Made by a program: the position numbers. DNA of 61,587 nt, counting the filler, from Candidatus Woesearchaeota archaeon (GTDB lineage: Archaea > Nanobdellota > Nanobdellia > Woesearchaeales > BM511): assembly GCA_023266675.1 (NCBI GenBank). It is 4 parts of 4 records of this genome, joined end to end, with 100 filler letters (N's around TTAATTAATTAA, not from the genome) between each part and the next. Parts side by side here need not be neighbours in the genome. Positions count along the whole stretch, not along the records: positions 46,661 to 61,587 come from JAHFPP010000034.1; 3 more parts are not named here. One strand, written 5' to 3'. The stretch's first letter is position 1; each line of letters begins with the position of its first letter. This document shows, one piece after another, positions 57,001 through 60,000 of this stretch.

Positions 57001-60000
57001 TTTTTGTGTGCTGACCAAAACCTGATTCTCCCTGATAGACTATGTTTTTTCCCATTAAGCCAAATATTGGAAGAATTTCGTCAAAGGTTTCTTTGTCTCC
57101 TCCAACCATTATTGTAAGCCTAGCTTCTTTTGCTCCAATGTCGCCGCCTGTTACTGGCGCGTCAAGAGCGCTAAGATTTTTTCCTTTTGCCTCTTCATAT
57201 ATTTTTACTGCAAGCTTTGGAGATGAAGTTGTCATGTCAACAAGGATAGACCCTTGTTTTGCATTCTCCATTAAACCATTTTCTCCTAAATAAACTTCCT
57301 CAACATCTTTTGGTGTGCCGATAATTGTTATTATAAGATTGCATCTCTTTGCCAAATCCAAAACACTGTCCACCCAAACAGCTCCTTTGTCTAAAAGTTC
57401 CAAAGATTTTTCTTTTGTCCTATTATAAACTACGAGTTTATATCCAGCATCAAGCAGATGTCCTGCCATGCTTTTACCCATAAGACCGGTGCCTATGAAT
57501 CCGATGATAGTGTTTTCCTTTGTAATAACCATATATATTCACACTCCAATTAAATTATTAGATATAAAACAAGGTTAAAGAGAGTATATATTAAATTTGC
57601 GATGAAGAACTGATAAAAAATAACAATTAATTTATTGTAAATCCTTATGGTATAAATCAAGAAAGATTATCTTGTTTTCTTCTTTTAAATATAAATAAGA
57701 TAATCGGTAAGGAGAAATATAAACCTCTCTTGTTCCTTTACGAAAATTTCTCATTGGCTTTCCTATTTCCGGATTATTTTCAATCTTAATAAATTGTTTA
57801 ACTATTTTTTCTTTAAATGAGTTATCTTTTATCTTGGAGAATTATTTCTGAAAGTGTTCATCAAAACTTGAAATTAACATTTTTTAATAATTTTTAAGAA
57901 TTCATCAAAAGGCACCTCTTTGAACTTACCTTCATCATATCTTTTCAAAGCAGCTTCTGTTCTTTTAGCAAATTCTATATCCTCTTTAAATTGTTTACTA
58001 ATCTTATTTGCTTTTTTAATAATTAATTTATCATCGCTTCTTATTACAATAAGTTTTTCTCCAACTTCAAAGTCTTCTCTCATATCAGTTGGTATTACTA
58101 TCTGTCCTTTTGTGCTCATTTTAGTCATTCCAATATCCACATGTATCACCTGAGTAAGACTAATCTTACTAGATATATAAATGTGTCTGTAAAATATGAA
58201 AAAATTAAAGAAAAAAATTAAAAAACTTTTTTACAAGTCTTTTATTCCTGCAGTTTCAACTATGAATCCGCACTCGTTGTCAGGAAGGTTTGGAGAATCG
58301 ATAAGTTTTGCAACTCTTGTGCCTTTCTTGCCTTTTCGAAGATAGATTCTAAAAGTGCTTGCGTGTGCAACGATGTGCCCTCCGACTGCCTTTGTTGGGT
58401 CTCCAAAGAACTGTGCTGGGTCTGCCTGTACTTGGTTTGTTACATACACGCATAGGTTGTGTACGTCTGCAAGGCGTGCAAGTGTGTGCATGTGCTTGTT
58501 TATCTTTTGCTGTCGTTCAGAGAGTGTTCCTCGTCCGATAAATTCTGCTCTAAAATGAGCGGTTAGTGAATCAATGATTACTACTCTTACTTTTAGTCCA
58601 TCATTTTTAATGAGGTCTTCAATTTTTTCAACAAGCAACATCTGATGATCTGAGTTGTATGCTTTTGCAACTTTTATGTGCTTTAAAACTTTTTCAACGT
58701 CCATGCCTGCGCCTTCAGCTAGTTGCACAATTCTTTCTGGTCGAAATGTATTTTCTGTATCTATATATACCGCGTAAGCGTCTTCATCTTGTTTTTGTGC
58801 CATTACAGCCAGTGTGTGTCCTATCTGTGTTTTTCCTGAACCAAACTCTCCAAAACACTCAGTTATTGCGTTTGTTTCAAATCCTCCGCCGAGAAGATCG
58901 TTTAATGCTGTTGATGGTGTTTTAATTTTAACTACGTTTAGTCTTTTTGCAAGCAAATCTTGTCCGGATTCAAATCCCATTTCAAGCGCTTGTCTTGCTG
59001 CCTGAATAACTTTTCTTGCAGTTACCTCTGTTAATCCGCCGGATTCCACTAACTCTCCCGGACTTGCAACTGCTATTGCGAGCATACTATCAAATCCTGC
59101 TGATTGCAGTTTTTCAGCTGTTGCTGTGCCTACACCTGGCAGGTCTTCTATTGACATATCTTCTTTTTTTGGTTTCATTTTTAATACTAGTTCTTGCTTA
59201 GCCATTGTGATTACCTCATTTATTTATATCTTTATTGATTCTTCGCCGTATGCGGAATCCGTGAATTCCCGAAGAACGATTTCTTTGTATGCTTCCTGTA
59301 AAACTACTGCTGCTCTTGGTAGGTCATTTATTCTTAAAGAATTTGTAGTCTGCCAGTTTCCTTCCTTGTCTTTGTAGGAGCGCTCAAATGTGACTGTCTG
59401 ATATTCAGATATCTGACCATCTTTTACTCCGTGGTTTTTCCATACAGTTGCGCATATTGCGCCTGCCCGGAACTTTTTTTCAGGCGTATTATTTACACCT
59501 GAACGTGCGAAGTTTTCTTTTTCGCTTGCACTATTTTTCTCTATTCTTGTTTTATACATTTTTTATGCCTCTTTTGCTTTTCGCATTTTATTTCAATTTA
59601 TTGAAATTTTCGAAAATATTATTTTCGATGTGTTTCAACAAGCTTTCCTTCTATTTTGAACAAGAGGGACCAAAAGGGGTTTGGTCCGTTGTTCCAGAAA
59701 GCAGTGGCACCGGATTTCTCCGATTAAGATGTTTTAGCTGATTTGATTTATATAGCTCACTTGAAGAAGTCCAGTGTCCAGTGGGGGTATTTTAAAGACG
59801 ACAAAGATAGTGTCCAGTGGAAACATTGAAAGAGGTTGTTTTAATGATTTTTTAGAAAGTTTATCTAAAGATAAAAAAACGATGTCCAGTGACTAATTAT
59901 AAAAAATTAAAATTATATATTAGTTATTTATTATATTTATTTTATATTAGTTATTTTTCTTACAAAATTGAATAAAATAGAAATATTTATATATATAATT

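Follow-up and report, generated by a model that had tools for sequence, protein, structure and literature searches.

The window analysed here, a stretch of 61,587 nucleotides from the genome of a Candidatus Woesearchaeota archaeon (the source genome, G000), consists of four contigs joined via runs of N. One of them, C76, carries the recombinase gene radA in a two-gene unit that is preceded by several copies of a short box. The features of the locus are as follows:

58231..59205, minus strand: radA, recombinase, second gene of the box-controlled unit (Pfam Rad51, E 7e-84)
59224..59559, minus strand: g01367, a 111-aa gene called as an open reading frame, first in the unit, family not known
59566..59596, minus strand: conserved leader motif, with an A-rich run, a 3-bp hairpin with a GA-N(1-2)-A loop, then the g01367 ribosome-binding site
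59747..59754, minus strand: TATA box TATATAAA, box positions 23-30 (from the sequence; register from 109 pooled sites)
59755..59767, minus strand: 13-nt spacer with a GC-richer stretch and a weak BRE
59768..59776, minus strand: proximal box CACTGGACT, in register with the TATA box
59775..59783, minus strand: tandem upstream box CACTGGACA, with a 7-nt period to the proximal box
59811..59819, minus strand: third box CACTGGACA, with TTTAAAA 23 nt on
59883..59891, minus strand: fourth box CACTGGACA, no in-register TATA
60117-60503: double-HTH gene adjoining radA

Transcription of the radA unit would start near 59724, and the third box may be a second promoter or a duplicated module. A single RNA contig of 219 nt (depth 2, from one groundwater run, too thin for a start or a level) covers 59467-59681. 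The leader motif is single-copy in the source genome, and the middle pair of its hairpin is G-C in 21 of 40 leaders and C-G in 19. The first gene, g01367, has 422 relatives and no match in Pfam or NCBIfam. Its structural model consists of four strands and one helix (pLDDT 78), with a possible PC4/Pur-alpha-like topology that is unconfirmed; fold and profile searches gave nothing significant, PC4 and Pur-alpha being weak hits (E > 0.6).

The box consensus, CACTGGACA, is an asymmetric 9-mer. With 51 occurrences in the whole genome against 8.7 expected from an order-4 Markov model, CACTGGAC is one of the most over-represented 8-mers of the genome; the survey's finding had put the number at 47. 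The radA locus holds four of these sites on the minus strand (59769-59776, 59776-59783, 59812-59819, 59884-59891), compared to a shuffle mean of 0.51. About 9 of the 51 sites lie in coding sequence, which is the chance number, and the remainder are intergenic (two start calls amended by eye), in agreement with the mostly intergenic placement described before. That the box is a real regulatory element is near certain.

Intergenic sites of the source genome precede the radA unit, hef, hel308, hjc and genes for a Cas4-like nuclease, Mrr and KilA-N, as well as an NgoPII restriction-modification pair, two LAGLIDADG genes, two toxin-antitoxin pairs, g00249, a small ORF ahead of sua5 and five tRNA-like genes, one of which is followed by xerA. 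Pfam confirms the targets named in the survey: hef, hel308, the Cas4-like nuclease, NgoPII with a C5 methylase, Mrr, KilA-N, the two LAGLIDADG genes, the ParE and MazE/PIN pairs, hjc and xerA. The tRNA sites do carry boxes, as claimed, but the five promoters are copies of one another (10-13 of 13 spacer positions identical) and thus do not count as independent sites. Hairpin elements and duplicated promoter blocks are found around several sites of this genome. No box in register was found at any of nine genes checked in G000 (uvrA, nreA, mre11, xpd, radB, fen1, pcna, endonuclease IV and the short cdc6).

Across the order, a single box with TATA is present in 173 of 201 genomes, the reversed pattern occurring 0 to 2 times per genome; in other orders it is present in 3 of 34. 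The tandem box, previously reported in 17 of 41 genomes, indeed occurs (18 of 61), and the range including single boxes is far wider. These order-wide tallies, like those of variant loci, short paralogs and helices below, include the unpublished genomes G111, G130, G174, G194, G196, G198 and G366; none of our conclusions depends on these genomes by themselves. The radA loci were read by eye for 30 of the 32 genomes of the order that are negative for the exact box (G249 and G269 left out; G004 yielded no radA). At the same radA position, 24 of 29 exact-negative genomes have the box or a variant, such as CATTGGACA, CACTAGACA, CACTTGCCA, CACTCGACA and CACTGGTCA, and neither was seen in the remaining G043, G153, G113, G186 and G124. 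Outside the order, 25 radA loci among the matches listed were judged by eye: 13 carry variants, 6 none, 3 were doubtful and 3 uninformative. The regulon is therefore present in Woesearchaeales as proposed but not confined to that order.

In some genomes the variant extends to the whole genome: G099 uses CAYTTGCCA (17 matches versus 3 in the control) and G004 uses CACTRGCCA. All sites of a genome drifting together argues for a trans-acting reader. A scan of named genomes returned, among 80 matches listed, 58 from Woesearchaeota, Nanoarchaeota or Nanoarchaeia, one from an 'archaeon' and 21 labelled Methanosarcinales. Eleven of these 21 listed loci match proteins of G000 or of a second genome, G265, seven of them being g01367 at 47-70% identity, and one (L483) is a 2.5-kb contig that may be mis-binned. 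The Methanosarcinales loci are likely mislabelled and we count no wider range from them.

The candidate regulator put forward by the survey was g00249, which indeed models as a winged helix and bears three boxes in G000; the box said to precede it in 10 of 30 loci is found as an exact box within 130 nt in 4 of 30 (12 of the 30 from other orders). Of 80 genomes, 70 yielded g00249, among them all five of the order that have no box; it was not found in five box-bearing ones (G053, G090, G099, G191 and G192). Being present without the box and missing with it, g00249 is better read as an occasional target than as the regulator. A screen of the proteins on contig 1 of G265 shared with G000, among the matches listed, led to three other conserved winged-helix candidates, all present in box-less genomes: A (C40:3993-4262 in G000), whose recognition helix is nearly invariant across box variants, C (C4:19406-19735) and D (C24:2254-2676). 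A second TFB was not found, four of five genomes having one TFB gene each (a truncated copy could escape), and the G000 assembly yielded neither a TFB nor the long paralog introduced below.

These genomes have two Orc1/Cdc6 paralogs, a short one of about 357 aa (C1:34903-35973 in G000, outside the window) and a long one of about 400-430 aa, which form separate clades with support 100 in a quick tree. The short paralog matches TIGR02928 and has intact Walker A and B motifs. All 22 genomes of a set with the box or a variant contain it, and none of eight without does; three more box-less genomes also miss it, so that all 11 box-less genomes, spanning six families, are without it. Order-wide, 192 of 201 genomes and 192 of the 196 box-bearing ones have the short paralog. 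The nine genomes without it are the five box-less ones and G013, G090, G116 and G187, box-bearing genomes in which the long paralog alone was found. It is also missing from G252, which is counted neither as box-bearing nor as box-less. Box-less lineages lose further genes, G153 for example being without three other winged-helix candidates. Box promoters stand at 16 of 91 short-paralog loci versus 0 of 12 long-paralog loci, about 4-6 times background for the short paralog, and most short-paralog genes, including that of G000, are without an upstream box.

If the short paralog reads the box, its recognition helix (Y313-K314-T-F-Q317-R-R in G000) would be the place to look for changes that follow the box variants. 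Of 356 columns, the one that best tells C-bearing from A-bearing sites at box position 7 is 314 (p 2e-7; next 2e-4), and for T versus G at position 5 it is 317 (p 4e-6); these p values ignore kinship and draw on many variant labels resting on one promoter. Q317 never occurs together with T5 (0 of 15 genomes). Whole regulons follow the helix, in G099 toward CAYTTGCCA and in G004 toward CACTRGCCA. A first rule set in advance, under which R314 should pair with a pyrimidine at position 5, did not hold for G004 and was uninformative in nine other genomes, where counts of the loose pattern equalled the control. A revised code, linking 314 to position 7 and 317 to position 5, was devised after this failure, fixed and then run on new genomes. 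Of the 29 exact-box genomes scored (one of 30 proteins being truncated), 26 combine K314 with Q317, narrowly missing a preset target of 27 of 30; the sole R314 in this set belongs to G077, which also has C7 sites. Of eight scored C7-rich genomes, six have R314, three of these six coming from families seen before (G339 was truncated and G325 not found), and G106 and G363 are counter-cases with K314 despite C7 sites. When pairs are taken from a tree of the ATPase part alone, all branches together give 5:0 of 8 for C7 with R314, where column 264 ties with 314, and 6:0 of 9 for T5 with non-Q317; well-supported branches leave 3 and 5 independent pairs, not significant in a strict test that is underpowered. 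Aligned to solved Orc1 proteins, residue 314 falls on the first member of the Arg pair in their helix, and this pair, by modelling, and neighbouring residues are placed at the DNA in the available parts of three reports (PMC9738581, PMC12490963, PMC12890983).

Taken together, the distribution and covariation suggest that the short non-initiator Orc1/Cdc6 paralog is probably the regulator and reads the box by direct binding. Another transcription factor, such as g00249, another winged helix or the double-HTH gene by radA, could instead read the box, with the short Cdc6 merely co-distributed. The winged-helix model of g00249 and its three boxes in G000 fit this, as do the four box-bearing assemblies without the short paralog; moreover, the screen took in part of the common proteome, and the double-HTH family (60117-60503) fell outside it. 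We consider this improbable: g00249 and the three conserved winged-helix candidates occur in box-less genomes, the recognition helix of candidate A hardly changes with the box, and none of these factors accounts for the covariation at Cdc6 314 and 317.

Origin recognition boxes form inverted clusters by the initiator gene and feature GAAAC and a G-string extension. The reverse complement of our box shares TCCAGTG with the origin box consensus. Reading the box as an origin recognition box was rejected: the boxes are co-oriented before promoters and a single G000 site has the extension. Origin-type boxes lie near 7 of 12 long-paralog loci and at background rate at short-paralog loci, with a pattern built on the origin consensus and set after the long loci were viewed; no CACTGGAC was found beside those at the long-paralog loci. 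More generally, the box could lack a regulatory role and belong to a mobile element or a repeat, or serve as an origin recognition box, a reading to which the hairpin elements, the duplicated promoter blocks and the copied tRNA-like promoters of G000 lend something. This reading is largely refuted and hardly credible to us, given that flanks vary among most sites and genomes while the TATA spacing is fixed, that targets are functionally coherent over dozens of families and that origin-type boxes adjoin the long paralog without CACTGGAC.

We then consider how the short paralog would act at the promoter. Across 109 sites from relatives, the TATA core occupies box positions 25-30, with base frequencies of T 0.89 (25), T 0.91 (27), A 0.83 (28) and A 0.93 (30). 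The survey had correctly placed the box upstream of BRE/TATA; its looser spacing gives way to this fixed register. Compared to 271 control promoters, all from G000, the spacer between box and TATA is GC-richer and the BRE weaker (A at -3, 0.43 vs 0.62; A at -5, 0.50 vs 0.71). In 66 of 112 promoters, the first ATG comes 51-54 nt after the start of the box; if those transcripts are leaderless, the box would lie at about -52 to -44. In five genomes, box plus TATA occurs 116 times forward versus 13 reversed (16 vs 5 in G000; 7 vs 1 in G265).

A box ahead of a weak BRE is the layout known for archaeal activators, as far as the available text of PMC5817253 goes, and the geometry points to an activator over a LexA-type repressor. 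Activation by the short Cdc6, which we draw from this geometry and from the Orc1-2 analogy below, is in our estimate probable. The opposite mode, in which the short Cdc6 represses on the box and is freed upon damage like LexA or DdrO, might draw on a long Orc1 footprint that could reach over the BRE and on Orc1-2 being described as both activating and repressing in the parts of PMC6061795 consulted. This is very improbable, because the box never lies over the TATA or the start, keeps a single orientation and a single register, and precedes a weak BRE in the activator layout described in the same portion of PMC5817253. The earlier label 'SOS-like' may be kept as an analogy only, without its LexA-type repressor mode.

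First-hit loci from relatives number 29: repair, recombination or replication genes account for 15, selfish or defence genes for 4 and a small-ORF operon for 6, with 4 unknown. Eighty further loci among the matches listed, drawn from several families and tallied by hand (one duplicates an earlier locus; second genes were taken for OGG, endonuclease IV and one xer), gave 39, 20, 10 and 11, respectively. Targets in relatives comprise the radA unit, hef, hel308, lhr, mcm, a fused primase, hjc, nreA, uvrB, xseA, scpA, a YprB-type exonuclease, LAGLIDADG genes and xer. One 173-aa target, in L127, resembled g00249 by eye and was rejected as its relative (probability 0.1%). That one regulatory box is common to recombination and repair genes, as the survey had claimed, is well supported by the order-wide box-plus-TATA and target tallies.

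The targets also bear on the trigger. Some are lesion-specific, namely uvrB, OGG, endonuclease IV, an SPL-like radical SAM gene, methyladenine glycosylase, dinB and nreA (dinB and methyladenine glycosylase added through the scan of named genomes), which favours DNA damage; others among the 80 sampled, mcm (3), primase (2), scpA, xer and the short paralog itself, leave room for the cell cycle or host contact. With the same regulator and box, the trigger would then be the cell cycle or host attachment and the regulon a replication and recombination programme at the onset of DNA copying. The absence of the box from uvrA, mre11 and xpd of G000 suits such a programme; the lesion-specific box-bearing genes do not, nor do the characterised non-initiator Orc1 proteins, which answer to damage according to the available parts of PMC6061795 and PMC10123103. 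We hold this trigger to be unlikely, though well worth keeping in view, and damage as the trigger to be rather likely.

In the mechanism that we propose, ATP-bound short Cdc6 would bind the asymmetric 9-mer by its winged helix, singly or in head-to-tail arrays, tandem copies adding affinity. Bound ahead of a weak BRE at a distance of one helical step, it would help TFB and TBP assemble and so act as an activator, jointly switching on recombination, fork-repair, excision-repair and replication-restart genes, most likely upon DNA damage or fork stalling. Homing endonuclease, restriction-modification and toxin-antitoxin genes would have acquired the same promoter. Of 89 short paralogs, 72 end in an L-x-[DEN]-[FY] tail, which we take to resemble a PCNA-binding motif; docking of this tail on PCNA could be the sensing route.

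In bacteria, damage regulons put the genes for recombinase, excision repair, error-prone polymerase and toxin-antitoxin systems, together with mobile genes, under one operator (SOS with LexA; the activator-type PafBC and DriD). The bacterial LexA/SOS operator is palindromic and lies over the core promoter, whereas the box is asymmetric, oriented and upstream of the BRE, and the candidate regulator here is an AAA+ winged-helix protein. A closer likeness is to Orc1-2 and its DDRE in Sulfolobales, where, in the accessible sections of the published accounts, Orc1-2 gives a footprint on ANTTTC and acts as an activator (PMC6061795), its binding being best with ATP (PMC9738581). Both systems, judged from parts of PMC6061795, PMC9738581, PMC12490963 and PMC5817253, feature a non-initiator Orc1/Cdc6 with intact ATPase motifs beside an initiator paralog, a short asymmetric site that precedes a weak BRE at a set spacing and, in some genomes, a box ahead of the regulator's own gene. 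As far as these sources extend, they differ in the site (CACTNGNCA at about -52 to -44 here; ANTTTC at -44 to -39 in upsX there), in the targets (radA, hef, mcm and homing endonucleases here; ups, ced and tfb3 there), in the protein, the short paralog being about 55 aa shorter, without the helix Arg pair and with a PIP-like tail, and in TFB, with one in four of five genomes here versus a system with a damage-induced truncated TFB (TFB3) among its targets there. A test for ANTTTC failed: the consensus is CACTGGACA, and the nearest variant, CACTTGCCA, yields ACTTGC, a single mismatch away from ACTTTC.

In a tree without crenarchaeal Orc1-2, the short paralog groups with euryarchaeal Cdc6-2-type sequences (FastTree support 1.0), apart from the long paralog, and one cluster of that group is named 'ORC1-type DNA replication protein 2'. 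The best NCBIfam model differs between the short and long paralogs, that of the short being below cut-off, and the short paralog scores 199 bits to Orc1-1 and 77 to Aeropyrum ORC2. Together with the two-cluster history of Cdc6, as given in the consulted part of Raymann et al. (PMC3914693), the tree and the NCBIfam ranking give orthology with Orc1-2 indirect support only, and the lower score to Aeropyrum ORC2 speaks against it. By analogy, the box system may work like Orc1-2/DDRE, in which membership is not established.

Outside Crenarchaeota, two systems come near, as described in the available portions of their reports. The Halobacterium motif TTTCACTTTCA, before radA1, top6B and other genes, has CACTT in common with the T5 box variants, but its 3' half and repeat period differ, and its genes are shown to be UV-induced (PMC2556686). 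Orf8 of the SNJ2 provirus is an Orc1/Cdc6 homolog and damage-responsive activator (PMC10123103); it is viral with one target gene, while the system here is chromosomal and genome-wide. In line with the survey, we found no paper on the box, nor any on a regulatory Cdc6 in Nanobdellota, in a search that left subscription journals mostly outside. A 2026 complete-genome preprint (10.64898/2026.05.13.725050), in the part of it covered, treats the second Nanobdellota Orc1/Cdc6 copy solely as a replication initiator, and the main text as available has no 'DNA damage', 'regulon' or 'ORB'. Our analysis suggests a role for this second copy.

As a whole, a damage-induced activator regulon under the short Orc1/Cdc6 paralog is the reading that we favour, with confidence somewhat better than even; that uvrA, nreA, mre11, xpd and endonuclease IV of G000 are without a box counts against it, as do the four box-bearing genomes with the long paralog alone, the other gene losses of box-less lineages and the missing box before most short-paralog genes. 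More speculatively, an Orc1-2-type damage regulon may be ancestral to archaea and kept in reduced DPANN symbionts. One homologous helix would read ANTTTC in Sulfolobales, CACTTTCA in haloarchaea and CACTNGNCA here by a two-residue code, the PCNA-docking tail would sense replication trouble, and tRNA-linked homing endonucleases would time their spread through a borrowed promoter; this larger picture is a doubtful conjecture, with perhaps a modest chance of being right.

For the regulation of DNA repair in archaea outside Sulfolobales, we offer a candidate regulator, its site and its targets in about 200 genomes. Thanks to natural variants of helix and site, an in vitro test of the claim would need a single purified protein and no culture. 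The analysis also suggests what probably reads the radA motif described from Halobacterium in 2008, and the box offers a route to predict repair genes among the unannotated genes of DPANN archaea.

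The box, the short oriented promoter motif upstream of BRE-TATA, is found before an operon of tiny ORFs preceding sua5 as frequently as it is before radA.

L002:2100-2234 (C1:34096-34233 in G000, the genome under study): box-driven tiny-ORF operon, 5' of sua5
L029, L118, L133, L140, L144, L153, L163, L174, L187: further loci with this operon

The operon comprises up to three conserved ORFs of about 35-55 aa each, driven by the box, and one of the encoded proteins is acidic and carries an EE-x-F-M-x-G-Y motif. It often lies within about 1.5 kb downstream of short cdc6, the Orc1/Cdc6 paralog that is the candidate reader of the box. 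The tiny ORFs are candidates for feedback or division inhibitors.

At the radA unit, whose first gene is g01367 (111 aa), two further features were identified.

59566-59596, minus strand: compact RNA-like leader motif of g01367, also present in 40 g01367 leaders of related loci
60117-60503, plus strand: double helix-turn-helix gene, transcribed divergently to the radA unit

The leader motif consists of an A-rich run and a hairpin immediately 5' of the ribosome-binding site. Of the 40 related leaders, 21 have G-C and 19 have C-G as the middle pair of the hairpin. The motif may be a translational operator, with the g01367 protein itself perhaps binding its own leader. The double helix-turn-helix gene has three paralogs in G000.

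Four strongly conserved, unnamed small proteins show a class-wide spread, and three of them have winged-helix features.

L005:1273-1803: g00249, modelled as a winged helix
L252:18861-19124, L234:12907-13215 and L222:5719-6117: the other three

Pairs among the four adjoin in some genomes (G206, G124), and short cdc6 lies close to g00249 in several genomes of other orders. Beside long cdc6, the paralog of about 400-430 aa, boxes of a different, origin type were located.

L338, L339, L340, L341, L342, L376: origin-type boxes, TCCAYRRGAAA

Some of these carry a G-rich run, and they mark what are probably replication origins of Nanobdellota.

Genome-wide, the most over-represented word in G000 is GACCTATAA, the 8-mer occurring 121 times. 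A common intergenic block terminates exactly at several boxes and may be the source of extra upstream box copies.

C34, C8, C13, C66, C9 of G000 (L004-L006, L011, L015): the shared block, roughly 100 bp long and containing palindromic hairpins

Additionally, 21 records titled Methanosarcinales (within L420-L499) contain the box together with Woesearchaeales-type genes; these labels are probably wrong.

Finally, the box is associated with tRNA-like and LAGLIDADG genes.

C57:7735-7819 and C34:25000-25085 of G000, with similar genes on C31, C33 and C66 (L009-L011, L013, L015): tRNA-like genes
L114, L122, L136, L167, L171, L175, L176, L181, among others: solo LAGLIDADG genes with the box in front

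The tRNA-like genes of G000 have long variable arms, and two are called Ile-GAT by ARAGORN. Upstream of each are a box promoter (box plus TATA), a partial copy of the 5' half of the gene itself, and another TATA. Free-standing LAGLIDADG genes, often adjoined by tRNA genes, are repeatedly preceded by the box, an arrangement that would couple homing to times of high recombination activity.
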